Shown: positions 2,193 to 64,000, numbered from the stretch's first letter. The stretch is 64,000 nucleotides of DNA from Candidatus Nomurabacteria bacterium (GCA_052035405.1 JBPOHQ010000007.1:12292-76291), one strand, 5' to 3'. The notes: a model not told the origin generated them from the sequence alone. Numbers and translations are program-made.

Positions 2193-2221
2193 TTGGCACT
2201 AAAACTTATCTAATGTATAAT
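2193..2221 (+). promoter_or_regulatory. Sigma70-like promoter: TTGGCA-17 nt-TATAAT, ~50 nt upstream of the RHS gene
   Basis: Exact -10 TATAAT at 2216-2221 and -35 TTGGCA at 2193-2198 with a 17-nt spacer. Confidence 0.45.
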
Positions 2222-2270
2222 TTATTTAGCAGTTCTTCTATCGGCAATTATTATTAATAACATACATATT

Positions 2271-40640: not shown

Positions 40641-40682
40641 TATCCTTTGAGATATAATTCTAAACGTAGTTAAATCACATTT

Positions 40683-41096: not shown

Positions 41097-41130
41097 TTTT
41101 ATTTGGTTAATATTCTAGTCTCTTGCTATA

Positions 41131-41547: not shown

Positions 41548-41563
41548 TTTCTAAAATGGTCAG

Positions 41564-42586: not shown

Positions 42587-42647
42587 TTATCCACATTAAA
42601 AATAATGGTGCAGTTAGTTATTTATTGGTATAATCTAATTAATTTTT

Positions 42648-43892: not shown

Positions 43893-43905
43893 ATTTTAAT
43901 CGACT

Positions 43906-44931: not shown

Positions 44932-44942
44932 ACTTTTCTTTA

Positions 44943-45851: not shown

Positions 45852-45857
45852 TTACAT

Positions 45858-46727
45858 ATGATCAAAAAAATTATTTTATTTTTAGTTATACTGTTTTCTT
45901 TTTCTACAAATGCACATGCTGCATCTCTTTTTTTGGATTCACCAACAGATATTAAAAAAGACCAAATTTTTGAAGCTAATATAAAGTTAGACTCTATGGG
46001 AGAAGTGGTAAACTCTTTTTCTATTAGTTTAGCGTACCCAGTAGAATTGCTTACCTTCAATGGATATAAGGAGGATTCTACTGTGATAAAGATGTTTATA
46101 GAGAAGCCAAAGGTTGTTAATGGTAAAATTTCTTTTAGTGGTATTATTCCCGGTGGTATTTCTGGATTTTACGATCCCAATAAAAAAGATGTAAACACAC
46201 TACCAGTTATAACATTACTTTTTAAACCAAGGAATGCTGGTGAAGGAGTCTTCTCTTTTACAGACATACAAATACTTAAAAATGATGGTTTGGGTACTAG
46301 CTTGTCTACCCAAAGTTCTGATAAAAATATAAAGGTAAATTCTGTAGAAGAATCTATAAAAGAAGAAAAGGACAGCATAAAGCCTCTTCCTTTTAATATA
46401 CAGTTAATAGAAGCATCTAGCCTGTCAAATACTCCACTCATGCTGTATTTTAATACAAGGGATTTAGATTCTGGAATAAAAAATTATCAAATAAAAATTA
46501 ATAATACTGTTTGGATGAACGCAGAGAGTCCTTATGTCATCTCAAGAGGATTTTTTGCAAAAAACTTCACAGTTAGGGCTTTTGATCATGCTGGTAACTA
46601 CGAAGACGCTCATCTTCGTTTGGAGGGTAAATCGTTTGATTTTATTACCCTAATTATATTAGTATTAATCGTGTTTGTCTTATGTCTCTCTTATCTGTTA
46701 ATATGGAGAAATGGTAAATTCGATTAG
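45858..46727 (+). CDS. Cohesin-like domain protein, C-terminal transmembrane anchor
   Basis: Signal peptide; ~140-aa domain FSISLAYPVELLTF...LLFKPRNAGEGVFSFTDIQILKNDG fits the cohesin consensus; C-terminal transmembrane helix. Confidence 0.5.
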   Translation: MIKKIILFLVILFSFSTNAHAASLFLDSPTDIKKDQIFEANIKLDSMGEVVNSFSISLAYPVELLTFNGYKEDSTVIKMFIEKPKVVNGKISFSGIIPGGISGFYDPNKKDVNTLPVITLLFKPRNAGEGVFSFTDIQILKNDGLGTSLSTQSSDKNIKVNSVEESIKEEKDSIKPLPFNIQLIEASSLSNTPLMLYFNTRDLDSGIKNYQIKINNTVWMNAESPYVISRGFFAKNFTVRAFDHAGNYEDAHLRLEGKSFDFITLIILVLIVFVLCLSYLLIWRNGKFD

Positions 46728-47853
46728 AAATCTTAATATATTTATATTTATCGGAGTACTTTTGTTAAGTCCAAGTATTTCTTCTGCAGATAATTCTAGG
46801 TTGTTTTTTAGCAATCCTCCAAAACAAATAGAAGAAGGAGAGAGGGTTACTTTTGATATAAATATTGAATCCAAAACTCAATCCATAAATGCTATATCTG
46901 GTGTTGTATATTTTCCTTCTGAATTATTGCAAGTTGTATCTGTTTCTAAAGAAAAGAGTTTAATCAATTTTTGGACACATGAGCCAAAAGTTTTTAGAGA
47001 CAAAATATCTTTTGAAGGAGTCATTTTAAATCCTGGGTTTCAAGGGTCTAAGAGTAAAATTTTTAGTATTACCTTTGAAGCTAAAAATAAAGGTACAGCA
47101 AATCTAGGCTTTACTGAGGGTTCAGTCCTTGCAAATGATGGTATGGGTAGCAATGTTCTTACCTATCTAGATAGGGTGATTTTTAAAATAATAGGTGTAA
47201 CGTTAAAGCCTGATACCACTGTACCTCAGCTACCTAAAAAAGATTTAGCTGAAATACCTAAAATAAAAAAAATTGCAAAATTACCCATAATCACAGACTA
47301 TCCATCTTTTGTGAACTCAAAAGAAAAATTACATTTAGAAGGTGAAGGTGAACCAAATGCACTGACAAAAATCGTCTTTGAAGATGTGTCTGTAAAATCT
47401 ATTGGAGAGAGGTTTATGGAATTTGTGCAGACAGAAAAGAAAAAGTTAGACAGCGTATTGGTTAAAAATAATGAAGTTGGTAAATTTGATTACGTTAGTC
47501 CCTCTGATCTATTAGCTGGTGTTTATAACGCTACTCCCTTTTTAATAGAAGAAGAAACAAACACTGAAAAACCAGGTTTTGGTGTTCAACTTTTTGTGAA
47601 GGACAGTAAAATAGTTAATTACCTCATTGTAGCCATAAATGTACTTGGGTTACTTATTCCTATTGTTACATTATGTGTGATAGTATATTTCATACCATGG
47701 TATTCATGGAGAAAAATGAGGGTTCTGAAAAGGAAATTAGGATTAGAAGAAGAAAAAATAGAGCTTATAGGTATTGACTTAGAAAGACAGAGTAATCAAA
47801 GGGTGGACAGGAGTGTCTCTTTTAAAGAAGAAAATATATTAAAAAAAGAATAG
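46711..47853 (+). CDS. Cohesin-like domain protein 2, C-terminal transmembrane anchor (paralogue of 45858-46727)
   Basis: NAISGVVYFPSELLQV...ITFEAKNKGTANLGFTEGSVLANDG aligns with the preceding protein. Confidence 0.5.
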   Translation: MVNSIRNLNIFIFIGVLLLSPSISSADNSRLFFSNPPKQIEEGERVTFDINIESKTQSINAISGVVYFPSELLQVVSVSKEKSLINFWTHEPKVFRDKISFEGVILNPGFQGSKSKIFSITFEAKNKGTANLGFTEGSVLANDGMGSNVLTYLDRVIFKIIGVTLKPDTTVPQLPKKDLAEIPKIKKIAKLPIITDYPSFVNSKEKLHLEGEGEPNALTKIVFEDVSVKSIGERFMEFVQTEKKKLDSVLVKNNEVGKFDYVSPSDLLAGVYNATPFLIEEETNTEKPGFGVQLFVKDSKIVNYLIVAINVLGLLIPIVTLCVIVYFIPWYSWRKMRVLKRKLGLEEEKIELIGIDLERQSNQRVDRSVSFKEENILKKE

Positions 47854-47863
47854 TTGCATCTAA

Positions 47864-48715
47864 ATGAAAGATAAAATAATTTTAAAAATTATATATGTTT
47901 TTGCTTGTATCGGTTTTATTTTCGTATTGGTTTTTCTATTAATGCAATTTGGGTTACTTAATGTTCGTGGTTCTATTAAAGAGAGAAATCAATTTTTTGG
48001 ACAAGTAAAGAAAACAGACAATACAAACGGATGCTTGCATGCCCCAGAGACGCAAGATGAAGAAGTGCTGTGTGCTTGGGTTGATACCGCAGAATGGGAA
48101 GTGGTTCGCGAAGGTTTAAAAAAAGATGCATCTATAATACAAGACGTCTCGCAGAAAACTGGTGTGTCGGCTCGGATGATTGCCGCATCTGTTGTCCCTG
48201 AGCAGATAAGGTTCTTTACTTCTAATAGGGAAAGTTTTAAAAGATATTTTGAGCCTATGAAACTTTTAGGTTCAATGTCTCAGTTTTCTCTTGGTGTGTC
48301 TGGTATCAAACAAGAGACTGCGAATGATATAGAAAAATATGCAAATGACTCAACTTCACCGTTTTATCCTGGAGGAGGATTCGCAGAACTGCTTGTCTAT
48401 CCAAATGGTGTAAACCACGACACGGAACTTTACAATAGGCTTACTGATTCAAAAAACCACTATTATTCTTATCTTTATACTGCCATTTATTTAAAAGAGA
48501 TAGAAACACAATGGAAGAATGCTGGGTTTGAAGTAGGTGATAGGCCAGATGTTTTGGTTACACTCTTTAATCTTGGTTTTAAAGCATCCAATCCTAAACC
48601 AAATCCACAAGTTGCTGGGTCTCTAATCTATGTCGGAGGTAAAAATTATACTTTTGGAGTACTAGGTAGTTCATTCTATAATTTAAATGAACTTATAGAT
48701 ATATTTCCAAATTAA
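47864..48715 (+). CDS. Membrane-anchored hypothetical protein
   Basis: N-terminal transmembrane helix; no family recognised. Confidence 0.4.
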   Translation: MKDKIILKIIYVFACIGFIFVLVFLLMQFGLLNVRGSIKERNQFFGQVKKTDNTNGCLHAPETQDEEVLCAWVDTAEWEVVREGLKKDASIIQDVSQKTGVSARMIAASVVPEQIRFFTSNRESFKRYFEPMKLLGSMSQFSLGVSGIKQETANDIEKYANDSTSPFYPGGGFAELLVYPNGVNHDTELYNRLTDSKNHYYSYLYTAIYLKEIETQWKNAGFEVGDRPDVLVTLFNLGFKASNPKPNPQVAGSLIYVGGKNYTFGVLGSSFYNLNELIDIFPN

Positions 48716-48778
48716 TGACTTTTAATTTTAATTTTGTTATATTCTATCAATGTCATTATCTATAGGCATTGTATGAAC

Positions 48779-48869
48779 GCAACACGACATATACCCGATA
48801 AGGTTATTCCTTTCTATTTCACTATTAAATTACCACCGCCTTTAGTTAGAGGGGTGGACTATGGATTCA
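48779..48869 (+). repeat. Copy 1 of a ~91-bp direct repeat (caacacgacatatacccgat...ttcactattaaattaccac...tttagttagagg...tatggattca)
   Basis: About 90 % identical to 57851-57943 by eye, same orientation. Confidence 0.8.
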
Positions 48870-48893
48870 ATTCAGTTGCAAAATAAGGGTGTT

Positions 48894-49838
48894 CTAAAAT
48901 TTTAATTTATAATTAAATATAAATTTATTACTAGAATATTTTATCTCACCACCTATAGGTATAATATTTATCGGGTGAGTGTGTCCAAAATCTACATTTG
49001 CCACAATAGGAATATTTTTTAATGCCATTTTATTTGCAATAATACTCTCCAGATCTTCTTTATTTATATTTGAATCTGTATCAAATCGGCCAATGACCAA
49101 AGCTTTGATCTTGTTAAAGTTGGGTTGTAAGGTTAATGTCTCTAACTGTCTATCAAACTCTCCCTTATCATCCAATGAATAGTGATCCCACTCAATAAAT
49201 AAAACTTTATCAGTTAAGTTTGGAAAAAATTCCGTACCGAACAAAAGACTAAAGCTAGGTAAATTTCCACCCACAGCAATTCCTGAAAAGTCACCTGGAT
49301 TAATGCTCCATAAACCTGAATTATCAATAATTTCTCTTTTTTCTCCAAACAATGCGCCGTAATACTTATCACTTACCTTAGCTTCATAAGATTCTTCTTG
49401 TTTTAAGGCAGCAGATAGACTGTCGGTGGTATTTGGTAAAAGAAGTGATGAACACAACCATCTGTAATTTATTCCCAGATATGATGTTAAACCGGTTTTA
49501 GTAAATATAGCATTACAAAGAACTGTAACATCTGAAGCGCCAAAAAAAGGCTTAGGATTGTTTTTAACTAGATCCCAATTTATATTAGAAAGTATTTGAT
49601 TTGAATTCGTCCCCCCATGATAGGCCATTATTAAATTCACCTCCTTATCTGACCATGCATCATTCCAGTCAGAGATTCGTTTTTCTATTGTTGTAGACAC
49701 CCCTTCTATTCCTTCTACATTTTTCCCGTACAAAACATTAAAACCCTCATTGTTAAGGAGACCTTCTGCAATATTTAATGTATTTTTGTGTCTCTCAAGC
49801 AAGGGGCTACTTGGAGCAATAATTTTTATGTTTTTCAT
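48894..49838 (-). CDS. LD-carboxypeptidase (peptidase S66, MccF/LdcA family)
   Basis: IIAPSSP, IMAYHGGTNSNQIL and PKPFFGASDVTVL motifs. Confidence 0.65.
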   Translation of the reverse strand: MKNIKIIAPSSPLLERHKNTLNIAEGLLNNEGFNVLYGKNVEGIEGVSTTIEKRISDWNDAWSDKEVNLIMAYHGGTNSNQILSNINWDLVKNNPKPFFGASDVTVLCNAIFTKTGLTSYLGINYRWLCSSLLLPNTTDSLSAALKQEESYEAKVSDKYYGALFGEKREIIDNSGLWSINPGDFSGIAVGGNLPSFSLLFGTEFFPNLTDKVLFIEWDHYSLDDKGEFDRQLETLTLQPNFNKIKALVIGRFDTDSNINKEDLESIIANKMALKNIPIVANVDFGHTHPINIIPIGGEIKYSSNKFIFNYKLKF

Positions 49839-49933
49839 TGTCTTATATAGCCATAGAATACCACTTTACACCATTTTTACAAGGCATGAATTTGAGTTGA
49901 CAACCTTAGTAATAAGGGTAACATGAGGTTTAT

Positions 49934-50953
49934 ATGAATAAAAACTCAAAATGGGCAGTAATAATATTATCATTAATTGCATTAATAGCTGTGTCAGGAT
50001 TCTTGTTCTCTGGTATAAAAACAAAAGAAAATACTCAGGTAGAGTCTCCTGAAATAAGAATAGGATGGCAAACACCCTGGGCCACCCAAGGACAATTGGT
50101 TCAAGTCTTGAAACACACCCAAATTTTAGAGAAACATAATGTAAGAGCTGATTTTAAAGGATTTACTTATGGTGGGCCACTAAACGAAGCCGCACTTGCA
50201 GGAGAAGTCGACATGATTCTAACCGCTGATCAACCAGCTGCAACATTACTATCAAAGAATGAAAATTGGACTATCATTGGAAGACTTATGTACAACAGGG
50301 TTTCTTTGTATGTGCCCCCAATGTCTCCAATACAAAATGTTTCAGATTTGAAAAATAAAACTGTAGCCATGCCTTTCGGAGCTGCCGCACAAAGAATGGC
50401 ATTAAAAGCAGAGGAAGATGCGGGTCTTAACCCAAACACAGATGTGAAGAATATTAATTTGGGTATCTATGAACAGTCTGATCTTATTCGTGATCCCAAT
50501 GCAAAGAAATGGGGCGATATAGATGCCATGGCAGGATTTGATCCACTTCCAGCGATTTTTGAAGAAAAGGGGTTAACCAGGAATTTAGGTGTTGGCAAGA
50601 TTGTATCTGTGATCCTAGTAAACAATTCAGTTTTGGAGAACAATCCTGAAGTCGTAACAAATTTCCTGAGTGCTTTTACTGATGCATATGATTATTATAG
50701 AACTAATGTTCAAGAAGCAGATGCTTGGTTTGTAGAAGAATCAGGTTTAGATATTACCCCTAAGGCGCTGGAAATCTCAGCAAGCCTTGAGCCAAATCTA
50801 AAAGTTAACAGTAAAGATGAAATAAGGATTGATTTTAATGATGAAGATTTTGCCATCATGCAGGAAGCAGCTGATTTTATCTTTAACCAAGGTCTAGTTG
50901 ATAAAAAGGTAGAGATGAAAAATTTTGTTAACACGACATATATCAAAAAATAA
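49934..50953 (+). CDS. ABC transporter substrate-binding protein (NMT1/SsuA/TauA family)
   Basis: N-terminal anchor; IRIGWQTPWATQGQL...LTADQPAA. Confidence 0.65.
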   Translation: MNKNSKWAVIILSLIALIAVSGFLFSGIKTKENTQVESPEIRIGWQTPWATQGQLVQVLKHTQILEKHNVRADFKGFTYGGPLNEAALAGEVDMILTADQPAATLLSKNENWTIIGRLMYNRVSLYVPPMSPIQNVSDLKNKTVAMPFGAAAQRMALKAEEDAGLNPNTDVKNINLGIYEQSDLIRDPNAKKWGDIDAMAGFDPLPAIFEEKGLTRNLGVGKIVSVILVNNSVLENNPEVVTNFLSAFTDAYDYYRTNVQEADAWFVEESGLDITPKALEISASLEPNLKVNSKDEIRIDFNDEDFAIMQEAADFIFNQGLVDKKVEMKNFVNTTYIKK

Positions 50954-50959
50954 AACTCT

Positions 50960-52096
50960 ATGAAAAAAAATCTTATATTAATATCACTTGATACTTTAAG
51001 AGCAGATGTCGGATATAGTGGCAGATTCCCAACAATAGAGAATCTTCGGAAAAAATCAGTTTCTTTTCTGAATACAATCTCATCTGCCCCAATCACACCC
51101 ATCAGTCACGCTAGTGTGTTTACTGGATTACAGCCTTACAATCATGGAGTAAGACATTTGTTTAAGGAAAAACTAAACCTTAAACACAAAACTCTTGCTG
51201 AGTTATTAAAGAAGCAAGGTTACGACACCGCAGCCATTGTATCCTGCCCTGGGATGAATAAATGGTATGGATTATCAAAAGGTTTTGATTATTACAACGA
51301 TGAAATTCCGAGACTTCCAGATGGCACAGACCCACTAAAGACCGTAGATGTTAAAAAGAGAGGTTCTGCTTTAAAAAGAGCTGACGTCGTAGTCGACAAG
51401 GCCAAAGAATGGTTTTCTAAAAGGAAGTCAAAAAAACCTTTCTTCCTGTTTCTTCACTTTTTCGACACACATTGGCCATATGAAGCACCTGAAATATACG
51501 GTGGAAATAATATTTACGAACAAGAAGTAGCTTATGCTGATTATCACCTAGGAAAGTTTCTTGAGTATGTAAAGAGTGTGGTGAATCTAGACGACACAAC
51601 AATTGTATGTTTTTCTGATCACGGTGAAGATTTAGAAGGATTGTATCCAAACGACAAAGGAGGTAAAAAACTTGGACATCCTGAAGAATCTGGTCATGGT
51701 TGTTTGCTCTATGACCAAACTCAAAAAGTGATGCTAACTTTTAGTGATAAAAGTTTACCTAAAAATAAAGCTTTAAATAATCAAGTTCGACTGATTGACC
51801 TCACGCCAACTGTCTTGGATTTATTAGGAGTAAAAACTAGTTCAATTAAATTTGATGGTGTTTCTTTGCTTCCGGTCATCAAAGACAAGAAAAATATTAC
51901 ACCTGTGGCATATTCAGAAACCTTTTACCCAGAGGAGCAAAATCAATCTACAAATAATAAGTATCCAAATGCAAAGAATAAAAAATCTATTAGGATAGAC
52001 AACAAATATAAAGTCATCTTTAATCTAGAGAGTGACTTAATAGAGGTCTATGATCTAGAAAAGGATCCGAACGAGCAAAATAATCTTTTTCTGTAA
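50960..52096 (+). CDS. Alkaline-phosphatase-superfamily enzyme, NPP/type-I phosphodiesterase-like
   Basis: ILISLDTLRADV...SAPITPISHASVFTGLQPYNHGV resembles NPP (Thr-nucleophile region TFPNHYSIVTGLYPESHGI). Confidence 0.55.
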   Translation: MKKNLILISLDTLRADVGYSGRFPTIENLRKKSVSFLNTISSAPITPISHASVFTGLQPYNHGVRHLFKEKLNLKHKTLAELLKKQGYDTAAIVSCPGMNKWYGLSKGFDYYNDEIPRLPDGTDPLKTVDVKKRGSALKRADVVVDKAKEWFSKRKSKKPFFLFLHFFDTHWPYEAPEIYGGNNIYEQEVAYADYHLGKFLEYVKSVVNLDDTTIVCFSDHGEDLEGLYPNDKGGKKLGHPEESGHGCLLYDQTQKVMLTFSDKSLPKNKALNNQVRLIDLTPTVLDLLGVKTSSIKFDGVSLLPVIKDKKNITPVAYSETFYPEEQNQSTNNKYPNAKNKKSIRIDNKYKVIFNLESDLIEVYDLEKDPNEQNNLFL

Positions 52097-52108
52097 TTAT
52101 TTAAAGTA

Positions 52109-53452
52109 ATGTTGGATCAGAATAAATTTTGCAATACTGAAGATCTGGTTAAAGCTGTTCAGGAGATGAGCGGGCGCGCAAAGGCGGCGAATTGCGAAAT
52201 TATTTATTTCATAGAGTCCGGTGGCCTCATGCTTAAAGACATATTCATGTCGCTTAAAGACAGGAGTGGTTTCAATGCTTCTGGTGTTGTATCTAGCAAG
52301 GTTACAGCACTAACTAAAATTCCATTGAGTTATCAAATAAAAGGTCTGTTAACTGAAGAAGAAATTAACTCAAAAATTAGCATCAATCAGATAGAAAAAA
52401 TAAGAGAAGTTATTCAGGTAAGTAAGTTTAATAACAAGGAAGATATTGTTAAATTATTCACCAGTGACCATGTCCCAGAAAAATCCCTAGGCGTTATTAT
52501 AGACACATTAACCATGTTAGGCGAAGTGTCCCCAGTAATAGAAAACAATAATAATACATTTTTTAAAGACGACACAAAGTTTATCCAGACAAAGGAAAAA
52601 TTGCTGAGTGAACGTATTAAAGCGCTTCCAAATATAAGACATGATATTCGCCCTATACTGAATATTCTTTTAGAAAATACATCTTTTGCTAAAAAGATTA
52701 GTGGGAAGAAAATTTATGTAATAGACGAAGCAACTAGCAGAGGTCGGGCTCTGTGGTCCATTGAAATAATACTAAAGGCTTTTTGCTCTAGCGCGGTCTG
52801 GAAGATTGGGGTTATTTACAGCACAGCACCAGTCAAATCAAGTGAATACATTGACTATATTTTCAGTAGCACTAAACCACCACTACTAACAAACCGTCCA
52901 GATGTATTGGGTGTTATAGTGGCAAAAGATGAACAAGTTGGATTCAAAAGGAATGAAATTAATGGTCTACTAAACCATCTGGCTTATGCGGAGTTTGATC
53001 ATTTGTCATATGATACAAATCTACAAATCATTCACAAAAAAATTGAATCCATATCGACTAAATTTCAAATATCCTCTTCTTTGTCGACAGATCAAAAACT
53101 AAAACTAATAAACTTTTGGATAAATTGTAATGTTAAAGAGCACTTTGAAGAATGTTTGAATCTGAACCTAGTAAGTTGTACTGGAATAATTGAACAAACA
53201 TCATTTTATTTATGCGCACCGAATCCTTTTGCAGACATTAAAGAAAGAGAATCCTTTAAGAAGGAGTCGCACAACTTCCTAGATAAACTACTAGAAATTT
53301 ATAATGATCCAGAATATTCAGATGAATTTAATAGCATTAAGGAAAAACTAATTCAGGCCAAAAAGTCGATAAATTTAAAAGAGTTAACAGATTGGCAAAA
53401 CAATAGGAACAATTTCCTGAAAGAAATCAATCAATTTATTAGCGTGATATAA
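52109..53452 (+). CDS. Hypothetical protein (447 aa)
   Basis: ORF; GC-rich 5' patch; weak PRTase-like IYVIDEATSRGRAL. Confidence 0.35.
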   Translation: MLDQNKFCNTEDLVKAVQEMSGRAKAANCEIIYFIESGGLMLKDIFMSLKDRSGFNASGVVSSKVTALTKIPLSYQIKGLLTEEEINSKISINQIEKIREVIQVSKFNNKEDIVKLFTSDHVPEKSLGVIIDTLTMLGEVSPVIENNNNTFFKDDTKFIQTKEKLLSERIKALPNIRHDIRPILNILLENTSFAKKISGKKIYVIDEATSRGRALWSIEIILKAFCSSAVWKIGVIYSTAPVKSSEYIDYIFSSTKPPLLTNRPDVLGVIVAKDEQVGFKRNEINGLLNHLAYAEFDHLSYDTNLQIIHKKIESISTKFQISSSLSTDQKLKLINFWINCNVKEHFEECLNLNLVSCTGIIEQTSFYLCAPNPFADIKERESFKKESHNFLDKLLEIYNDPEYSDEFNSIKEKLIQAKKSINLKELTDWQNNRNNFLKEINQFISVI

Positions 53453-53454
53453 TA

Positions 53455-54867
53455 ATGATTATGAAAAAAGAAAACAAGTATGACCATATAATCCTCGTTT
53501 CATTAGACACACTTAGAAACGACTGTATTACAGCAAACAAAGAAAATTTTGTTAAAAAGATGTTGGGTAAAAAAGCCTTTAAGACGGAAAAAATAGACCA
53601 ACTCATTAAAAAAGGAGTTTACTTTAGAAACTGCATTTCGGCAGCTCCGTATACTTCTGCTTCTCATACCGCTTACTTCACCGGCGTGTGGCCAAACCAA
53701 AATGGTGTATATGAATTTTTTAATAGAAAAATCGCTCGACCAACTATTTTTAAACTGGCAAAAGAAAGCGGTTTCCACACCATATTTCAGACAGACTTTC
53801 CTATCATTCTAGGAGAAAGTCTAGGGTTTACTGATGGTGTAGATGATTATTTTATTGAAGACGAAAAAAGTGCTTTTAAAAAACTACAGACAGCATCAAA
53901 AAACAAAAAAACAGTATCATTCTTTCATTTTGGGGGGATACACTATCCATATGGTTTCCATAAGATAAAATTTGCTAAAAAGGATTTCCCAAACAAGGTT
54001 AAGGCGTTAGAAAAAAAATATGGACTAAAACCAAACACTGATGCACCAGACATGCTGGATGAAAGTTTTCGTGACGATAGAGATAAAGAATATTTACTCA
54101 GATATAAATCTATTGTTGACTATCTGCACTCCGAATCTAAATATGAAGATTTGCTACAGCTCTATCTTGAGGGATTGGATTATTTTTTGAAAAATAGATT
54201 CAATTCTTTTTTTGATAAATTAATTAACTTTGTTGATAAAAATAACGCCCTACTTGTTGTATTTGCGGATCACGGTGAGAACTGGAACGAAAATTCACGA
54301 GGACATTCTAATTCGGTGGATGATGAGGTGTTAAGAGTTCCATTAATATTCTATGGTAAAAATATTCCAAAAAATAAAAAGATAGCTGAACTTGTCAGAA
54401 CGATAGATGTTATACCTACGGTATGTGAATATACAGACATAAAGAAGGTTGGATTTAGTGGTAAACCAATAGATCTGCAAAACATTAAATCTTTTAAATC
54501 GAAGCGAGATGCTTATTCACAAGTATGGAGAGTTGGAGACAAGCGCAAAATATATGAATTTCAACAGAAGATTTTAAAAAATAAAAAAATGTATAGTCCA
54601 TTAAAAACTAAACTAGAGAAAGAGTCAGTGTATGCTAATGAATACTCCTTAAAACGTAAATATCTTGAAAATGGCAAAATAGAGGAAGTCTTGTTTAAAA
54701 ATACAGGAGAAAAAATTGAACCAATGAAAGCGAACGAAAAAATCTCTTCAAAATTAAGAAAGCTTCTGTCGGAATACAATAAAAAAAATAAATTTGTTGG
54801 TGAAAAAATAGATGAGATTCCTACAGAGATTGCCAATGGATTAAAATCTATGGGTTATAATGTCTAG
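53455..54867 (+). CDS. Second alkaline-phosphatase-superfamily / NPP-like phosphodiesterase
   Basis: IILVSLDTLRNDC...SAAPYTSASHTAYFTGVWPNQNGV. Confidence 0.55.
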   Translation: MIMKKENKYDHIILVSLDTLRNDCITANKENFVKKMLGKKAFKTEKIDQLIKKGVYFRNCISAAPYTSASHTAYFTGVWPNQNGVYEFFNRKIARPTIFKLAKESGFHTIFQTDFPIILGESLGFTDGVDDYFIEDEKSAFKKLQTASKNKKTVSFFHFGGIHYPYGFHKIKFAKKDFPNKVKALEKKYGLKPNTDAPDMLDESFRDDRDKEYLLRYKSIVDYLHSESKYEDLLQLYLEGLDYFLKNRFNSFFDKLINFVDKNNALLVVFADHGENWNENSRGHSNSVDDEVLRVPLIFYGKNIPKNKKIAELVRTIDVIPTVCEYTDIKKVGFSGKPIDLQNIKSFKSKRDAYSQVWRVGDKRKIYEFQQKILKNKKMYSPLKTKLEKESVYANEYSLKRKYLENGKIEEVLFKNTGEKIEPMKANEKISSKLRKLLSEYNKKNKFVGEKIDEIPTEIANGLKSMGYNV

Positions 54868-54946
54868 CTAGACTTTTTTGACATAGCTCACTTTTAGTTA
54901 TATAACTAGTAAAAATAACTAGTTCACTCAAAATTAAATAAATAAG

Positions 54947-56239
54947 ATGGGCAAACAGAAAGTACCCTCGGTTAAAGGCATGAATGACATTCTGCCTGAG
55001 AGGCTACGCAAAATGCAGTTTGTAGAGAATCTGCTACTGCAACTTAGCTACAACTATGGGTACTTGCAAGTTAAGACCCCATCAGTTGAGCATGCGGAGC
55101 TGTATACACGTACATCGGAATTTTCGGAAGAGAAGAGCTATCCGGTCATTGATCCGAAGGATCGTGGCCTAGTGCTCAAAAACGACCCGTGTGCACCTTT
55201 GGTTCGCTTGGCGATAGAAAACCTTGTAAACAGGCAACCAGCCCCTTATAAGCTGGTGGCTTGCGATAGTATCTTTCGCTCGACGAACCGCAGGCGTCGA
55301 GAGTTCCGGATGTTCAATTTGGCCTGCTTTGGCGTTCCTGGGTCTATGGCTGACGCCGAGATGCTACGACTTCTGGTCGATTTCTTTGAGGCTCGAGGGC
55401 TTGTGGGTTGCAAAATTACTTTCAACAACCTGCAGCTTTATACCTCCTTGCTTTCCAAAGAAGTTGATGATCCTGAAAAGGTTGGTTCCATATTGCATCA
55501 GATAAGATTTGCAACGGATTTGAAAGCTGTGAGAGAAATACTTACAACTTCACAAGTTTCTGAGCCAATTGGTTCGGTTATATTGCAACTCTGGTCTGGA
55601 ATACAAGGTACCGCTGAACTCATGAGGATCGCTGATTCTTTAGAATGCAATCCATTTACTGAGGCAGTTGTACATCTTGAAGCATTTGAAACAATGTTAC
55701 AAAGCCATGAATTGAATCTTGCGATATTGAATACTGCAAATCTTCACGGCACCGGCTTTTACTCGGGTCTTACGTACAAACTGATTGCACCTGGTGAAAA
55801 AGGTCGTGAAATTGCCGACGGTGGCAGATATGACGACATGTTCACTCAGCTTGGTGGAGTTGGTATGGGTGCTTGCGGAATTGGGTTAGGCATTGAGCGA
55901 CTGGTTGAAATACTAGAAAGCTATGGTTGCCAAACTCAGGAATCAACCACTTGCAAGAGTGTGTTTGTGATTAATGAATTGGACCGTGAATCTTTTGCAA
56001 AATGGTCCAAGACGATCCGCAAACTTCGACTTGAGGGTTTCAAGATTGAGGAAGATCTTTCCCAAAAGAAATTCCAAAAATCTTTTGCCAGAGCAAAGTT
56101 ACTTGGCTACGACCTTGTTTTGGTCATGAGACCTGCCGGTGACAGCATTACAGTACAAATTATCGATGCTAGCACTCTTTTAGTTAGAGAGTTAACAATT
56201 GATAACGAAGCTGAGCTTTATTCTCTTCTTCAAGGGTAA
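54947..56239 (+). CDS. Histidyl-tRNA-synthetase paralogue (HisRS-like, degenerate motif 2; HisZ-like or auxiliary aaRS), conspicuously GC-rich
   Basis: GMNDILPE...; motif 3 GGRYDDM...GIGLGIERL; C-terminal HGTP-anticodon-like domain; local GC (~45-50 % by eye) well above surroundings. Confidence 0.65.
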   Translation: MGKQKVPSVKGMNDILPERLRKMQFVENLLLQLSYNYGYLQVKTPSVEHAELYTRTSEFSEEKSYPVIDPKDRGLVLKNDPCAPLVRLAIENLVNRQPAPYKLVACDSIFRSTNRRRREFRMFNLACFGVPGSMADAEMLRLLVDFFEARGLVGCKITFNNLQLYTSLLSKEVDDPEKVGSILHQIRFATDLKAVREILTTSQVSEPIGSVILQLWSGIQGTAELMRIADSLECNPFTEAVVHLEAFETMLQSHELNLAILNTANLHGTGFYSGLTYKLIAPGEKGREIADGGRYDDMFTQLGGVGMGACGIGLGIERLVEILESYGCQTQESTTCKSVFVINELDRESFAKWSKTIRKLRLEGFKIEEDLSQKKFQKSFARAKLLGYDLVLVMRPAGDSITVQIIDASTLLVRELTIDNEAELYSLLQG

Positions 56240-56261
56240 ATAAAGACGAATGATTGATAAC

Positions 56262-56297
56262 ATCAGGGTTGTAGCATACAATAGCTACAACCCTGAT
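56262..56297. terminator. Perfect 14-bp inverted repeat atcagggttgtagc-N8-gctacaaccctgat (terminator or recombination hairpin)
   Basis: Seen directly; lies between the HisRS paralogue and the ABC permease gene. Confidence 0.5.
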
Positions 56298-56302
56298 TTA
56301 GT

Positions 56303-57070
56303 ATGAAAATACCATTTAATATTAAATTAATAATAGTACTGCTATCCATAACGCTTCTTATACAAGTGGTTTTTTTGCTTTTTCCTGAATGGTCTACGGT
56401 TTTACCTCAACCTCTTGAGGTAATTAAGGTAGGCGTAAATGAATTCTCGTCCGGAAATATTTTTATTGATATTTTAGTTAGTCTTAAAAGAGTGACAGTT
56501 GGTTTTCTTTTGGCGACAATTATCGCAATACCACTGGCGATATTTAGCGCCCATCATAAGATTGGTAGATATTTAGTTAATATAAACGAATTGTTACGAC
56601 ATATACCGCCAATAGCCTGGATACCTGTGGCCATAGTTTTTTTTGGCCTTGGAGATGCTTCCGCATTTTTTATTGTTTTCTTGGGTTCCTTTTTCCCAAT
56701 TTTTTTAAATACTTTTTTTGGAGCTAATAGTCTGCCCTTGGTGTATATCAGAGTTTGTCAGTCATTTGAGTTACCGAAAATGGTTTATATGAAAGATATA
56801 CTATTCAAATTCTCATTGCCATATATTTTTACAGGCTTAAGGATAGGTATAGGCATGGCATGGATGAGTGTTATTGCTGCAGAGTTAGTTGGTGCTCAAT
56901 CTGGGCTTGGCTATTATATACAATTCAATAGGCTACTTTTGCATATGGATAAGGTGGTTTTTGGAATGCTTTTGATTGGTTTAATAGGTTTATCTTTAAA
57001 TAAATTAATAAAGTTACTAGAGAAAAAGGTGCTGGTATGGGTGCCTTCAAATCACCATGATAGAAATTAA
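56303..57070 (+). CDS. ABC transporter permease (SsuC/TauC-like)
   Basis: Six transmembrane segments; EAA-like loop. Confidence 0.75.
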   Translation: MKIPFNIKLIIVLLSITLLIQVVFLLFPEWSTVLPQPLEVIKVGVNEFSSGNIFIDILVSLKRVTVGFLLATIIAIPLAIFSAHHKIGRYLVNINELLRHIPPIAWIPVAIVFFGLGDASAFFIVFLGSFFPIFLNTFFGANSLPLVYIRVCQSFELPKMVYMKDILFKFSLPYIFTGLRIGIGMAWMSVIAAELVGAQSGLGYYIQFNRLLLHMDKVVFGMLLIGLIGLSLNKLIKLLEKKVLVWVPSNHHDRN

Positions 57071-57773
57071 AAACATATCTCATAAATACAAAAGACAAAA
57101 TCAAAATATATTAAATGATATAAATTTTAATATTTCTGATGGAGAATTTGTTACTATTGTCGGAAAATCTGGATGTGGTAAATCAACACTCTTAAACATT
57201 ATTGCCGGATATATAAAACCAACTAACGGAAAGATATTTATTGAAGAAAAAGAAGTAAATAAGCCCGGCAAAGATAGGATTGTAATTCATCAAGGATATG
57301 ACCATTTTGATTGGATGAGCGTCGAAGATAATTTGTTATTAGTAAACAAAGATAAGTCTGTAGTTTATGGATTATTATCAAAAGTAGGACTTGAGGATAT
57401 GCACGATGCATTTCCGCACGAACTTTCTGGCGGAATGAAGAAAAGACTATCTATAGCCAGAGCCTTGGCAGCTGATCCTAAATTCTTGATTATGGACGAG
57501 CCATTTAGTTCACTGGATCATAAAATCAGAAGCCAGATCTATAAAGAAGTTTCGGCCTTAACCAAAGAACTAAATAAAACTGTTTTGTTAGTGACGCACG
57601 ACTTAGATGAAGCAATTGAATTGTCGAATAAGATTATTATTTTGTCTGGTGGCTCAACCACAGTTCATGAAGTAATCTATTTAGATAGACACAATCAATA
57701 TAATGACCATTCAAAGTTTTTGGATCAAATATTTAATTTAAAAAATCAAATAAAAAAATTGATTGAAGATTAA
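57057..57773 (+). CDS. ABC transporter ATP-binding protein
   Basis: Walker A GKSGCGKST; signature LSGGMKKRLSIARAL; Walker B LIMDEP. Confidence 0.85.
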   Translation: MIEIKNISHKYKRQNQNILNDINFNISDGEFVTIVGKSGCGKSTLLNIIAGYIKPTNGKIFIEEKEVNKPGKDRIVIHQGYDHFDWMSVEDNLLLVNKDKSVVYGLLSKVGLEDMHDAFPHELSGGMKKRLSIARALAADPKFLIMDEPFSSLDHKIRSQIYKEVSALTKELNKTVLLVTHDLDEAIELSNKIIILSGGSTTVHEVIYLDRHNQYNDHSKFLDQIFNLKNQIKKLIED

Positions 57774-57850
57774 TAAATTATTTTCTACTTGAATTTTCTT
57801 AAGAAATAAGTAATAGTAAGGGGATGAGTTTAAGTATCGGAATGGCGTGA

Positions 57851-57943
57851 GCACAACACGACATATACCCGATCAAGTTATTCCTTTCTATTTCACTATT
57901 AAATTACCACCTCCTTTAGTTAGAGGGATGGATTATGGATTCA
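57851..57943 (+). repeat. Copy 2 of the ~91-bp direct repeat (see 48779-48869)
   Basis: Seen directly. Confidence 0.8.
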
Positions 57944-58032
57944 GTAATTATAATAAAGAGCACAAATAGGCTACTTAGGTTTTTGTAAAAATTTGATAAA
58001 ATCTGTGTAAGATGATTTAATCATTAATATCT

Positions 58033-59088
58033 ATGAGAACAATTCTTATTACTGGTGGCTGTGGCTTTATTGGAGCAAACACGGCAGAGTACTATCTAAC
58101 TAAAAAAGGCTATAAAGTTGTTGTGCTAGATAATCTTTCAAGAGTTGGTTCTAAGTATAATTTACAATGGCTAAAAAAAATTAACGGTAACTTTGTTTTT
58201 CGAAAAATTGACATAAGGGATTACAAATCTTTACTTGTAATATTTGAAGAAGTTAAGCCTGACTTAATTCTACATTTAGCAGGACAAACCACGGTAACTG
58301 GTTCCATGGTAAATCCAAGAGAAGATTTTGAAATTAATGCTGTTGGTACTTTTAATGTTTTAGAAGCCCTTAGAAATGGCGCACCTAAGGCTACCTTGAT
58401 TTACTCTAGTACAAACAAAGTAATGGGCGAACTAGCAGACATGCCTATTCGAGAAGAAAAAAATAAATATTCTTTCAAGAACATAAAAGGTATTTCTGAA
58501 AAACAGCCATTAGATTTTTGTAGCCCATATGGTTGCTCAAAAGGTTGTGGTGATCAATATGTTTTAGATTATGCAAGAATTTATAAATTAAACACTGTCG
58601 TTTTTAGGCAATCATGTATTTATGGTTCAAGACAATTCGGCATAGAAGGACAAGGGTGGCTTGCCTGGCTCATGAGTTCTTTGATTTTTGATCAGGCTGT
58701 ATCTTTATATGGTACGGGCAAACAAGTTAGAGACATTCTGCATGTTAGAGATTTAATAAGTGCTTTTGATTTAGCTTTTAAAAATATTAAAATAACTAAG
58801 GGCAAAGCTTATACTATTGGAGGAGGTCCAAATTTTTCTGTCTCTATTTTAGAATTCTTTGAAATCCTAGAAAATATTTCTGGTAAGAAGTTTAACTACA
58901 AGATGAAACCTTGGAGATTGGTAGATCAAAAAGTCTATATTTCCGATGTGTCTTCGGCAAGTAAAGATTTTAATTGGATACCAAAAGTGAGTCCAAAAGA
59001 AGGTATAAAAGATATGTATGATTGGGTTTTGCAAAATAAACAACTTATAGATAAATCTGGTATTTTAAATAATAAAACAAAAAAATAA
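58033..59088 (+). CDS. NAD-dependent sugar epimerase/dehydratase (SDR family)
   Basis: ILITGGCGFIGAN; YGCSK (YxxxK). Confidence 0.8.
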   Translation: MRTILITGGCGFIGANTAEYYLTKKGYKVVVLDNLSRVGSKYNLQWLKKINGNFVFRKIDIRDYKSLLVIFEEVKPDLILHLAGQTTVTGSMVNPREDFEINAVGTFNVLEALRNGAPKATLIYSSTNKVMGELADMPIREEKNKYSFKNIKGISEKQPLDFCSPYGCSKGCGDQYVLDYARIYKLNTVVFRQSCIYGSRQFGIEGQGWLAWLMSSLIFDQAVSLYGTGKQVRDILHVRDLISAFDLAFKNIKITKGKAYTIGGGPNFSVSILEFFEILENISGKKFNYKMKPWRLVDQKVYISDVSSASKDFNWIPKVSPKEGIKDMYDWVLQNKQLIDKSGILNNKTKK

Positions 59089-60009
59089 TTGCTACTGATC
59101 ATGGAAAAAGGACCCGAAAGAATAATAAATATCGATATAAAATGTCTACAAATTGACAGAGAAAATTTAGAATCCCAGCTTAAAAAAATTTCAGAGGTTC
59201 TATTAAAAATATCAGAAGACGATCGTTTCGATACCTTCTCTCACTTTGCAACACTTGCCGACATTTCAGACAGTCAAAGTGTTGATCCAGTAAATAGTGT
59301 GGAATTGTTAGAAAACTGGGACTATGAAAGTATGGATTTTATTAAAAAAGAGAAAGCAGGAAACTGTGTTGATTTTGCAGTCTTGTGTCAAAAAATGTTA
59401 GCAGATGTTGGAGTGCCCACAACAATAATTGGAAGACTGGCAGAAGAAAAAGATTATACACCAAGACAAGCCAGCTTTTTAAAATATAGACACGTTGCTC
59501 CTATGTATGCAAATGAATCAAACGGGTTAAAATTATTTGTATTGGAACCAAGTTGGAAGTTTTCTGAACCAGTACCAATTGCATTAGGTGTACCTTCTAT
59601 TTATAAAGACTGGGTATCTGAGGTAACTAATATCAAAGGTGTAAATTTTTCCCAAAAAGCATTTAATCCAGTAAAGAATAAACGCAGAGAAAGATTGTAT
59701 GATATTCATCCACTTGATATAGACTACTGCTGTCAACTAACTAAGCGTTTTATCCGAGTGCCTAGAGAATTAAAAATATTGAATACAAAAAACGAAGAAA
59801 TTATTCAATTCGTTAAATTTGACGCTAAGAAGCAGATATTTGTCACAAATATAGAGGGTGTGGGTTCTGAGTTTTTACCTGACACAATTAGTGGGGAGCA
59901 ATCAAGAGTGTTAGAAGAAGTTTTGGGAAAGCCTGAATTAACCACTTATCTATCTAAAGTTTTTAATTTCATACAATCATTACCGAATGATTTTTGGATA
60001 AAAGATTAA
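59089..60009 (+). CDS. Transglutaminase-like (Cys-His-Asp) domain protein (tentative)
   Basis: GNCVDFAVLCQKMLADVGVPTTIIG...RHVAP. Confidence 0.4.
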   Translation: MLLIMEKGPERIINIDIKCLQIDRENLESQLKKISEVLLKISEDDRFDTFSHFATLADISDSQSVDPVNSVELLENWDYESMDFIKKEKAGNCVDFAVLCQKMLADVGVPTTIIGRLAEEKDYTPRQASFLKYRHVAPMYANESNGLKLFVLEPSWKFSEPVPIALGVPSIYKDWVSEVTNIKGVNFSQKAFNPVKNKRRERLYDIHPLDIDYCCQLTKRFIRVPRELKILNTKNEEIIQFVKFDAKKQIFVTNIEGVGSEFLPDTISGEQSRVLEEVLGKPELTTYLSKVFNFIQSLPNDFWIKD

Positions 60010-60027
60010 TAATTAATTTAACAATAT

Positions 60028-61831: not shown

Positions 61832-61839
61832 TAAAATTT

Positions 61840-62823: not shown

Positions 62824-62825
62824 TT

Positions 62826-63885: not shown

Positions 63886-64000
63886 TCAGAAGTTAGCTGA
63901 GCAAATATTCCAAGATGGAAAGTTAATAAAAAAACTGAGCCCTAGTCGCAATGCTTTTAATAGTGAGGCGTGTATTTATAGATGGCTAGATAATGATTAT

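Follow-up and report, generated by a model that had tools for sequence, protein, structure and literature searches.

The window, a 64,000-nt stretch of DNA from Candidatus Nomurabacteria (GCA_052035405.1 JBPOHQ010000007.1:12292-76291), contains two copies, A and B, of a direct repeat and no further ones. A repeat search placed them at 48756-48869 and 57830-57943 (114 nt, 88% identity), both on the + strand, and blastn aligned 48761-48869 with 57835-57943 at 89% identity across 109 nt. These searches bear out the initial annotation in its description of ~91-bp direct repeats, in the same orientation, bounding a ~9-kb block. It also placed the right ends correctly (48869 and 57943), but similarity runs ~20 nt further left in both copies than it had supposed, and the copies, near-identical as it stated, differ by 6 mismatches over the 91 nt rather than by the ~8 that it counted by eye. 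Copy A and a third allele, in strain L003, are similar over ~30 nt further left again. A perfectly identical 35-nt core (48803-48837 and 57877-57911) occurs exactly twice in the window and had no match in 100 shuffles, even when 3 mismatches were allowed. Two independent metagenome assemblies that are 100% identical to the window (L001 and L004) break inside this core, as expected of a genuine two-copy repeat. A TR/VR pair of a diversity-generating retroelement was considered and rejected, given that the mismatches (A/C, G/A, G/T, G/A, C/T) show no adenine bias and that the window holds no reverse transcriptase homologue.

The DNA between the copies carries the cargo of cassette A (48894-57773). 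Pfam, NCBIfam and the GC profile agree with the earlier listing of an S66 peptidase, an ABC importer, two NPP-like enzymes, a hypothetical gene and a GC-rich HisRS paralogue: the genes are those of an S66 LD-carboxypeptidase (48894-49838, - strand), an SsuA-family binding protein (49934-50953), a sulfatase-family member of the sulfatase/alkaline-phosphatase superfamily (50960-52096), a product without assigned function (52109-53452), a second sulfatase-family protein of that superfamily (53455-54867), a HisS/HisZ-like protein (54947-56239, 45% GC), an ABC permease (56303-57070) and an ABC ATPase (57057-57773). The SsuA/TauA-type ABC importer is split, its binding protein lying apart from the permease and the ATPase. 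Cassette B (58033-64000, + strand), which continues past the window, encodes an NAD-dependent epimerase/dehydratase, a GT4 glycosyltransferase and a metallo-beta-lactamase-fold protein, each followed by an unassigned protein. In L001, it goes on with two more unassigned proteins and an inositol-1-phosphate synthase and ends at YchF, at window-equivalent ~65920-66927, ~1.9 kb past the window end and ~8 kb to the right of copy B. Judging from these domains, cassette A probably serves organosulfur uptake (sulfonate importer/sulfatase) and cassette B probably supplies cell-surface sugar genes.

Homologues of cassette A were absent from this locus in the sister strain L003 and in the closest genomes, L005 and L006, and L003 is 99.9% identical to the window solely from 57836 rightwards. 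The closest genome, L005, does have the genes of cassette B, but a tRNA-like gene stands upstream where the repeat composite would be, and ychF is missing within 10 kb downstream. The left flank of copy A also differs from the peptidoglycan-binding-protein gene found left of the first such composite in L003 and L054. ARAGORN detected no tRNA or tmRNA in the window, and a tRNA-targeted genomic island was rejected on this ground.

Each repeat is part of a longer composite, hereafter a scar, made of a ychF-type start, MSLSIG(I/M)(V/A)*, and, in another frame, of the last ~45 codons of a large serine recombinase (LSR) from CPR bacteria, with the peptide pattern RHGxNTxRH…IPFYFTIKLPPPLxRGxDYGF. In the LSR frame, scar A (48734-48886, + strand) reads LLYSINVIIYRHCMNATRHIPDKVIPFYFTIKLPPPLVRGVDYGFNSVAK* and scar B (57820-57969, + strand) reads GDEFKYRNGVSTTRHIPDQVIPFYFTIKLPPPLVRGMDYGFSNYNKEHK*. 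A six-frame search of the window with the peptide profile matched these two places only (E 8.5e-25 for A and 3e-23 for B; next-best 0.04), and tblastn matched both to LSR C-termini, scar A to those of P0029, P0008, P0018, P0027, P0033 and P0039; 'DEFKYRNG' of scar B, for instance, corresponds to LSR '…VEFKTIDRHG'. No integrase or LSR gene or fragment other than these two tails was detected in the window by tblastn.

The ychF-type start of scar A (48750-48776, + strand; ATG TCA TTA TCT ATA GGC ATT GTA TGA) is an 8-codon mini-ORF, MSLSIGIV*, and that of scar B (57824-57850, + strand; ATG AGT TTA AGT ATC GGA ATG GCG TGA) encodes nearly the same peptide, MSLSIGMA*, by different codons; the real YchF of the window strain reads MLSIGIVGLPNVGKST. 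The start in scar A represents the left arm, of B- or P-type, of the junction. The crossover region would lie at 48765-48773 (+ strand; GGCATTGTA), the Gly-Ile-Val codons 6-8 of ychF, as deduced from a table of junctions and from allele boundaries; the corresponding GG of scar B is at 57839-57840. From there, the integrase tail, or P' arm, extends over 48765-48869 in scar A (+ strand), where it encodes G/C-MNATRH…IPFYFTIKLPPPLVRGVDYGF up to the point at which similarity to copy B stops, and over 57839-57943 in scar B (+ strand). An extended -10-like motif, TGTTATATT, is found at 48735-48743 (+ strand), 6 nt 5' of the ychF-type ATG of scar A. The promoter scan identified ATGACT-17-TATATT with a preceding TG, a score that alone is not above chance, and TGnTATAxT also precedes the real ychF in L001 and the scars of L003, L054a, L054b and L054c. 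We infer that the motif is a putative ychF promoter for a leaderless mRNA.

The last 37 codons of scar A are annotated as a gene by NCBI (P0001), which raises the question of whether the repeat is simply a duplicated small gene of 37-40 aa (MNATRH…DYGF…) that serves some separate function, such as that of a regulatory or toxic peptide. An ATG or GTG is located at the same position in both copies, many tiny ORFs of the tail family are called in metagenomes, and the codon changes from A to B are synonymous (CCG>CCT, GAC>GAT) or conservative (GTG>ATG, V>M; AAG>CAA, K>Q). Coding constraint, which we count in favor of the LSR reading, shows in the peptide IPFYFTIKLPPP: the window, L027 and L030 all have it unchanged, yet the window and L027 use different synonymous codons at 11 of its 12 positions. 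Constraint can be inherited from parental LSR genes, and the in-frame similarity to the LSR continues 5' of the supposed start ('INVIIYRHC' against 'INVLSSYRHG'), the start codon itself being an internal V/M of the LSR. Since, in addition, C-terminal parts are missing in several copies and the peptide belongs to no Pfam or NCBIfam family, we regard an autonomous small gene as very improbable.

The same codons account for features that had been ascribed to a structured RNA used twice, as a 5' leader, small RNA or terminator. The CCACC(G/T)CC…GGG(G/A)TGG hairpin can indeed be drawn, and its minus-strand version tolerates the C>T change through a G-U pair, but the folding energies equal those of shuffled sequences on either strand (z -0.87, +0.61, +0.32, -0.24). 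The Rfam scan that the initial annotation called for returned 0 matches at gathering thresholds, and a local search at E<=10 gave chance-level matches only; no terminator-like site was found, and copy A sits between convergent genes. The stem arms coincide with the codons for PPP and RG(V/M), and the homologues in L027, L030 and L054b lack the 3' arm. Likewise, the SD-like agaggg followed by an MDYGF start resolves into R-G-(V/M)-D-Y-G-F, codons that belong to the integrase tail and are in frame with it. A structured RNA is thus effectively refuted, and we accord it hardly any probability.

The origin of the tail emerged from a profile search of 1.84 billion proteins, in which 40 families carried the motif. 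In the six of these that are named above, it forms the extreme C-terminus of longer proteins, directly after '…LQVYGYIPI…', a sequence that also ends the body of three-domain LSRs recovered together with P0029, and P0029 itself has the recombinase zinc ribbon. The most complete example, an uninterrupted 581-aa ORF at 9701-11446 of L031, combines Resolvase, Recombinase and Zn_ribbon_recom domains with the tail; like P0041, it passes all three Pfam cut-offs. Its contig is 964 kb long and has no ychF within 10 kb of the gene, which may mark an internal junction of an array or something else. Among solved structures, the catalytic domains closest to that of the CPR LSR are those of TP901-1 integrase and TnpX. 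No circular attP form was recovered, IMG/VR yielded only distant LSRs (27-32% identical), and our literature search found no paper on CPR LSRs.

LSR genes next to ychF show the reciprocal junction. In 9 loci, the YchF start overlaps by 38 nt with the gene of P0041 or P0047, LSRs that are N-terminally intact and tailless, and an LSR abuts ychF in L032-L040. None of the 32 N-intact LSR homologues has the tail, and 26 of them end in the peptide predicted from the ychF GIVGLPNVGK codons (6-15) read in the LSR frame. The LSR is correspondingly 581 aa long with the tail and 536-539 aa without it and fused to ychF; orphan tails also occur. Across genomes, because the forms are drawn from different ones and not from one matched attL/attR/attP quartet, scars join the ychF start to the tail, tailless genes join the LSR body to the ychF body, and LSR+tail genes have both P arms. 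The only stretch common to ychF, LSR+tail genes and scars is GGNATHGT, and sister alleles (winB and L003; L029 and L030) switch identity immediately 5' of the GG, which brackets the crossover to ~9 nt. The ychF genes of the window strain, L030 and L058 are preceded by an LSR P-arm remnant of ~7-10 codons. No LSR-bearing element was found on one contig together with the attL scar that belongs to it, and in L032 and L037 no tail occurs in the sequence upstream of the LSR, over up to 10 kb. The LSR elements carry a replication-type protein, a Prim-Pol/D5_N primase in L032 and an AAA_25 ATPase in L035; in L035, the LSR is also immediately preceded by an HTH_17 gene, a possible directionality factor.

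These junctions bear on a simpler proposal, that no site-specific crossover took place in an integrase gene and that the repeat is either a plain segmental duplication or what homologous recombination left of a decayed integrase pseudogene. The window has no integrase, and RecA-mediated exchange could make use of 109 nt with 89% identity. Yet at least 10 scars of different lineages share one junction to the nucleotide, …ATH|GG…, and its reciprocal is present in 26-32 LSR genes. Furthermore, the left arms encode MSLSIG followed by IV or MA by different codons, and the two window copies are therefore not duplicates of each other. We consider such a duplication extremely unlikely.

Scars were also found in other CPR contigs, which contain one to three of them, each heading an LSR-less cassette and each, in every case examined, with M(x)LSIG(I/M)x* immediately left of the tail. 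Three scars are spaced ~4.1 kb apart in L054/L055, and two arrays reach ychF, through 8 genes in L058 and through a reverse-transcriptase cassette in L030. An integron in the window was rejected, as the window lacks an integrase and the repeat folds no better than shuffles.

Taken together, these observations make it quite probable that both repeats are attL-type junction scars of integrative elements whose LSRs, a CPR family (Paceibacterota/Nomurabacteria), have the 5' end of ychF as their target. We infer LSR recombination as the origin of the scars, together with the order of events and the fate of the LSR genes, as follows. Most likely, the attP of the native LSR (~580 aa) lies inside its own 3' coding end and attB in the 5' codons of ychF. 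The P arm would be the last ~10 codons before '…R-H-G', whose other frame encodes a surrogate ychF start (ATG plus ~5 codons), and the P' arm would encode the conserved ~45-aa tail; attB would span ychF codons ~1-15, with the crossover in GGN-ATH-GTN (codons ~6-8). Integration would then create an attR that fuses the LSR body to the ychF body, keeping the ychF ORF intact with an element-supplied start and clipping the LSR to ~536-539 aa, the last few of them read out of frame from ychF codons. The attL at the other end of the element would join the old ychF start to the LSR tail, giving the scar. New elements would enter beside ychF and push older elements and scars upstream, and with LSR genes lost later, or cassettes lacking them from the outset, the residue would be scar-cassette-scar-cassette-ychF. 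In the window, scar A would head cassette A and scar B cassette B. The suggestion of an inserted island with a duplicated target or att sequence is thereby retained as regards site-specific integration and a mobile 9-kb cargo, absent from L003, L005 and L006, but each repeat would mark the left end of one of two successive islands instead of both ends of one, and would consist of an element-borne, clipped LSR tail joined to a ychF start rather than of host target sequence that was duplicated. Against this scheme stand the absence of an LSR body from the window, of a contig joining an LSR-bearing element to its scar and of a circular attP form, the location of the L031 LSR away from ychF, the L005 locus and the unmatched left flank of scar A. 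Canonical LSRs, moreover, recombine attP with attB only, which does not account for a second entry at a site with a P-derived left arm.

The scars could, as a variant of this scheme, be working attachment sites of LSR-less cassettes with a minimal attP (a ~30-nt P arm and the tail-coding P' arm), moved at ychF by an LSR acting in trans in an integron-like serine-recombinase system. All seven junctions examined (winA, winB, L001 ychF, L027, L030 scar, L030 ychF and L058 ychF) keep ~7-13 LSR P-arm codons, with no spread of sizes, and absence of the LSR is the rule in arrays (window, L030, L054 with three in a row, L058 and L062). Moreover, L001 and L003 differ in what lies to the left of cassette B but share the cassette itself at 99.9-100% identity, suggesting that it moved recently and independently. 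Against this, no circular cassette or empty-site pair was found, and the short P arm is equally explained by selection for the ychF start and promoter during LSR deletion; some tails are decaying, having lost everything after PPP (L027, L030 and L054b), and larger decayed LSR remnants exist (L041 and L052). We therefore hold movement in trans to be unlikely, if less so than the other alternatives, and favor attL-type scars left by integrative elements of the LSR family. More broadly, and tentatively, the family may represent a self-clipping bacterial serine integrase, with an attP in its own 3' end that also encodes a replacement ychF start. Integration would swap the tail for junk codons, a possible switch of integration state or directionality, and re-wire ychF expression to the element, and repeated use of the site, possibly by LSR-less cassettes in trans, would build integron-like arrays across the CPR. 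If true, this would be a self-partitioning integrase outside archaea and outside tyrosine recombinases. The clipped LSR would lose only the last ~8% of the protein and may still work.

Like the LSR integrases phiC31, Bxb1, TP901-1, A118, TnpX and SCCmec Ccr, the CPR enzymes combine Resolvase and Recombinase domains with a zinc ribbon and a coiled coil, and integrate into one particular host gene, sharing with it a very short core. In characterized LSRs, to our knowledge, attP lies outside the int ORF, whereas the CPR attP is apparently inside it, so that integration removes a conserved ~45-aa tail; in addition, the P arm appears to double as a surrogate start of the target gene, and scars accumulate in arrays. 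The arrays resemble integrons in that cassettes with the same orientation are stacked at a fixed site, each bearing a recognizable recombination-derived element and most lacking a recombinase of their own, and in their adaptive cargo (efflux, defense, nutrient uptake). In contrast to integrons, they lack an IntI tyrosine recombinase and an attC-type folded single-stranded site, their cassettes are several genes long, and the insertion is in the start of an essential-type gene instead of attI. In tRNA-targeting islands with tandem accretion, as here, the end of the target gene is carried by the element and the gene stays intact, while the displaced end persists as a direct repeat and successive insertions yield tandem arrays; the window, however, has no tRNA gene, and its conserved repeat is mostly integrase-derived rather than target-derived. 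Pneumococcal prophages adjoin ychF as well, and a defective upstream prophage controls ychF expression (PMC8637289). The gene neighborhood is the same, but the prophage integrase is a tyrosine recombinase, attB is intergenic and the hosts are unrelated, with no evidence of shared ancestry. In the integration-dependent immunity of mycobacteriophage BPs, attP lies in a coding gene whose integrated and free forms differ in a C-terminus with regulatory information (PMC4557955). A C-terminus that depends on the integration state would be common to both systems, but BPs uses a tyrosine integrase to clip a repressor, which loses an ssrA-like degradation tag, whereas the clipped CPR gene would be the integrase itself. 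Finally, the 'suicidal' integrases of the SSV1 type carry the site in their own gene, which integration partitions so that either end of the element bears a part of it; they are tyrosine recombinases, stated to be exclusive to archaea (PMC8371274). We rejected an SSV-type tyrosine system for the elements described here, since the domains are those of a serine recombinase, the hosts are CPR bacteria and the target is ychF. As in SSV1, the forms of the CPR genes suggest an attachment site within the integrase ORF and a partitioned gene, but here the enzyme is serine-type and bacterial, the target is a protein-coding 5' end rather than a tRNA gene, and only the last ~8% of the integrase would be removed.

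A single two-copy direct repeat family is present in the window, at 48756-48869 and 57830-57943 in a repeat search (114 nt, 88% identity) and at 48761-48869 and 57835-57943 by blastn (109 nt, 89% identity). Its 35-nt perfect core occurs twice in the window and in none of 100 shuffles, even with three mismatches allowed. The two near-identical direct repeats described in the initial annotation are thus real, and near-identity holds over the 91 nt first delimited, with six mismatches rather than about eight. Two Logan assemblies of the same genome, L004 (corresponding to 37864-48832) and L001 (57877-64000), are 100% identical to the window and both end inside the core, the behavior expected of assemblers at a genuine repeat. 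Pfam and NCBIfam searches confirmed the genes proposed to lie between the copies (S66 peptidase, ABC importer, sulfatase-family and HisS/HisZ-like genes), and the GC profile bears out the GC-rich HisRS paralogue, as values run from 31 to 37% save for a 45% spike over this gene. The HisS/HisZ-like gene (54947-56239, 45% GC amid 31-36%) scores below the NCBIfam cutoffs (hisS, 190 versus 287 bits; hisZ, 145 versus 272 bits) and has the genes of a split sulfonate-type ABC importer operon on either side, a position because of which we consider it probably foreign; it is probably not a canonical HisRS.

The proposal that the repeats are a structured 5' leader or a small RNA proved wrong: Rfam gave no match at the gathering score over the whole window and only chance-level matches around copy A at E≤10, both strands of both copies folded no better than shuffles (z from -0.87 to +0.61), and no terminator-like site is present. 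A Phe/Pro attenuation leader, or a PPP arrest peptide exposing a downstream Shine-Dalgarno sequence, was discarded since the hairpin is not conserved and no ORF follows. A tRNA 3'-end attachment repeat was rejected because a scan for tRNAs and tmRNAs found none in the window; a DGR template/variable repeat pair, because adenine bias is absent and the window holds no reverse transcriptase (a cassette with one occurs in locus L030); and a type I toxin, for want of a transmembrane segment. An exact 28-mer had no match in IMG/VR and an exact 24-mer none in GTDB genomes, the latter indicating that the source species is not among the GTDB representatives. The window epimerase is 88% and 81% identical to epimerases of a Candidatus Nomurabacteria MAG and a Paceibacterota MAG, respectively, in agreement with the hosts annotated for the recombinases described below.

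Translated in one forward frame, the copies give (M)NATRHIPDKVIPFYFTIKLPPPLVRGVDYGF… and …STTRHIPDQVIPFYFTIKLPPPLVRGMDYGF…. A pattern scan of IMG/VR with the peptide returned no relatives, a word-indexed search with 40 aa returned only the window's own ORF, and Pfam and NCBIfam found nothing in the repeat peptides. A degenerate scan of JGI metagenomes recovered diverged copies in loci L027-L030, where IPFYFTIKLPPP is unchanged despite synonymous differences from the window at 11 of 12 codons. An exhaustive search of 1.84 billion representatives yielded 40 families with the tail profile, most of them tiny ORFs. In six longer proteins (P0029, P0008, P0018, P0027, P0033, and P0039), the motif RHGxNTxRH…IPFxFxIKLPPPLxRGxDYGF lies at the extreme C terminus, directly after "…LQVYGYIPI…". 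P0029 contains a recombinase zinc ribbon, and its 184 homologs are large serine recombinases (LSRs) with annotated hosts in Paceibacterota, Kaiserbacteria, Nomurabacteria, Microgenomates, and others; in those inspected, "…LQVYGYIPI…" likewise closes the recombinase body. The LSR similarity continues in frame upstream of the supposed start of both copies ("YSINVIIYRHC" in copy A resembles "…INVLSSYRHG", and "DEFKYRNG" in copy B resembles "…VEFKTIDRHG"), so that the ATG/GTG is an internal V/M codon and not a start. The relatives belong firmly to the LSR family, whereas the question is moot for the window, which holds scars only; outside these two scars, similarity and profile searches of the window detected no recombinase sequence.

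An intact catalytic N terminus was found in 32 of the 120 gene-called LSR homologs, none of which carries the tail; the tail-less LSRs stop a few residues past "…R(D/N/H)". Two such genes, P0041 (loci L032-L034) and P0047 (L035-L040), share 38 nt with the start of YchF. The ychF codons GGN ATH GTN GGN YTN CCN AAY GTN GGN AAR, read in the LSR frame, predict the ending R-(N/H/D/Y)-(S/R/C)-(R/G/W)-x-(T/P/A/S)-(K/Q/E/stop)…, and this ending is exact in 26 of the 32 proteins and nearly so in the remaining six, indicating that essentially the whole LSR family is fused to ychF at one position. The other form of the gene, with the tail, occurs in locus L031 (9701-11446), where an unbroken ORF encodes a 581-aa LSR that also has all three Pfam domains. 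The appearance of N-terminal truncation in every tail-bearing LSR was in part a gene-calling artifact: the L031 gene is intact, while the copies in L041 and L052 are truly decayed, their 5' parts destroyed. No LSR-bearing element was seen with both ends: scars were absent from the sequence preceding the LSR elements in L032 and L035-L040, of which up to 10 kb was available, and those elements may extend farther. IMG/VR contained no free viral form of this family, only LSRs 27-32% identical.

Several features of these loci deserve mention. To the left of the LSR, L032 encodes a Prim-Pol/D5_N primase with PDDEXK and ResIII proteins, and L035 an AAA_25 ATPase with a small HTH_17 protein. Defense-rich cargo precedes the tail-bearing LSRs in L031 (329-9381) and L052 (270-5814), namely XamI/Eco57I/AccI-type restriction-modification, GmrSD, SMODS (CBASS-like), DUF6602, and an ImmA/IrrE-type M78 peptidase with an HTH protein. 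In L041 (8593-11164), the 5'-truncated, tail-bearing LSR is directly preceded by a tyrosine integrase gene and a tRNA-like sequence, suggesting that a second element inserted into or next to a first. Many homologs among P0041-P0159 are exactly 539 aa long despite differing ychF read-through lengths, which may be natural or a database artifact.

Every orphan copy of the tail has a ychF-type start just to its left, in another frame. In scar A (48734-48886, + strand), this start reads ATG TCA TTA TCT ATA GGC ATT GTA TGA (MSLSIGIV*) and in scar B (57820-57969, + strand) ATG AGT TTA AGT ATC GGA ATG GCG TGA (MSLSIGMA*); the others read MSLSIGMA* (L003, a sister strain), MALSIGMV* (L027), MKLSIGMV* (L029 and L030), MLSIGME*, MLSIGVA*, and MSLSIGMA* (three scars of L054), and MSLSIGMK* (L058). 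The real YchF of the window strain (in L001) begins MLSIGIVGLPNVGKST. When all sites were aligned on the GG of the Gly codon, the left arm ATG-N3-6-CTN-WSN-ATH was common to all, whereas the right arm was GGNATGGNRTGARCRCA… in scars and LSR+tail genes and GGNATYGTNGGNYTNCCNAAYGT… in LSR|ychF junctions and LSR-free ychF genes, only ~GGNATHGT being common to both. Both junction types occur at one nucleotide-precise position in many lineages; the attP-, attB-, attL-, and attR-type sites compared come from different genomes and not from one matched lineage. Comparison of sister alleles locates the exchange: from 57836 rightwards, L003 and the window share 99.9% identity, the left side of L003 being unrelated to that of scar B, and L029 and L030 are identical rightwards from the GG and use different codons for MKLSI leftwards. 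Such a switch exactly at the shared core is the signature of conservative site-specific recombination. The tails of scars A and B differ by two synonymous changes, V/M and K/Q; their left arms use different codons for almost the same peptide (MSLSIG followed by IV or MA), so that the two copies are products of separate events and not copies of each other. The suggestion of an island with attachment sequences was therefore partly right, the copies being integrase-derived junction scars in a cassette array.

Repeat homology, both junction types, and arrays ending at ychF are direct observations, and from the sequences the system looks like serine-integrase integration in a form where attP is intragenic and a start codon is mimicked. 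In the mechanism that we consider most likely, attP would lie inside the 3' end of the LSR gene and attB would comprise codons ~1-15 of ychF, and integration, presumably catalyzed by the LSR, would generate attR (LSR body|ychF) and attL (ychF start|tail). The free element would encode the 581-aa LSR and the integrated element the clipped form, the P arm giving ychF a new start; LSR genes would later be deleted up to the sequence needed by ychF. A conserved TGnTATAxT motif lies 6-9 nt in front of the ychF-type ATG both at the real ychF (L001, ~8026-8034) and at scars (window, 48735-48743; L054); as a single site it is not above chance. Its conservation suggests that ychF has a leaderless mRNA, for which the motif may be the promoter, and that scars may retain a promoter facing outward.

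The arrays are consistent with serial insertion next to ychF, a picture in which older cassettes are pushed upstream and LSR genes are absent. L054/L055 have three scars in the same orientation (10001, 14177, and 18219) after a 1149-aa PG-binding protein, each heading an LSR-less cassette (MarR/efflux/ABC; MarR/efflux/MFS; others). The scar is followed by eight genes (6.6 kb) and YchF in L058, by two genes of unknown function, a reverse transcriptase, and YchF in L030, and by NYN, NucS, type I restriction-modification, and Shedu-like genes in L062. L001 places the YchF of the window strain ~8 kb to the right of scar B, ~1.9 kb past the window end, and its start is predicted behind TGGTATATT…ATGCTAAGTATAGG; a remnant of ~7-10 LSR P-arm codons precedes ychF here and in L030 and L058. 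A different sample yielded L003, in which the PG-binding gene is followed by a single scar, with a B-type tail and an A-like left arm, and then by the epimerase block found right of scar B; it lacks the cassette between scars A and B. The whole L030 cassette (1743-4250), which could be a retron, a DGR, or an Abi-type defense module, comprises two unknown ORFs, of 220 and 160 aa, and the gene for a reverse transcriptase of 344 aa (RVT_1); a strong promoter of its own, TTGACA-17-TATAAT, lies at ~1636-1664. The position of scar B, upstream of the epimerase, is occupied in the closest GTDB relative (L005) by a tRNA-like gene (9740-9815), with a CTG-anticodon loop as judged by eye, and then by a GC-rich stretch that looks structured; the 10 kb downstream contain no ychF.

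Left of scar A, nine consecutive + strand genes (40683-48715) have no Pfam match on record; they may form an older cassette with its own scar lost or elsewhere. The window lacks the ancestral left neighbor found in L003 and L054, the ~1150-aa PG-binding protein. Further left are giant ORFs of 2653 aa (2271-10232) and 2085 aa (34383-40640), the former of which contains a 132-nt repeat whose copies (7794-7925 and 8841-8972) share 73% identity and has a local GC peak, 47.7%, at 8-9 kb. A 66-nt motif (GGTTGTGAAGATCC…, "GCEDPR…") recurs three times ~1 kb apart (16493-16558, 17497-17562, and 18484-18549) inside ORFs 15878-17230 and 17236-19167, and looks like a conserved motif of tandem paralogous domains.

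The genomes of CPR/Patescibacteria are tiny and come from uncultured organisms, and gene flow among them is poorly understood. With these results, the two anonymous repeats of the window become markers of island boundaries, as do dozens of metagenomic "hypothetical 35-80-aa proteins", and the ychF start is identified as a hotspot of flexible genes, with cargo including nutrient importers, efflux pumps, surface-sugar genes, restriction-modification, Shedu/CBASS-like genes, and reverse transcriptase. A candidate attP, ~60 bp around the "…RHG" codon of the LSR, and a candidate attB, codons 1-15 of ychF, are thereby defined and may serve as a new integrase tool. In the literature covered, which is incomplete so that an earlier description is possible, neither CPR/Patescibacteria serine recombinases nor a ychF attB for a serine recombinase matching this system is described. 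A pneumococcal prophage adjoins ychF and affects its expression (PMC8637289), and the BPs repressor switches its C terminus via an intragenic attP (PMC4557955). Archaeal SSV-type tyrosine integrases have the attachment site in their own gene, an arrangement said to be exclusive to archaea (PMC8371274); the likeness to our system lies in this location of the site, whereas the enzyme here is a serine recombinase. Our results suggest a serine-recombinase counterpart both of the archaeal "suicidal" integrases and of integration-dependent C-terminal switching.
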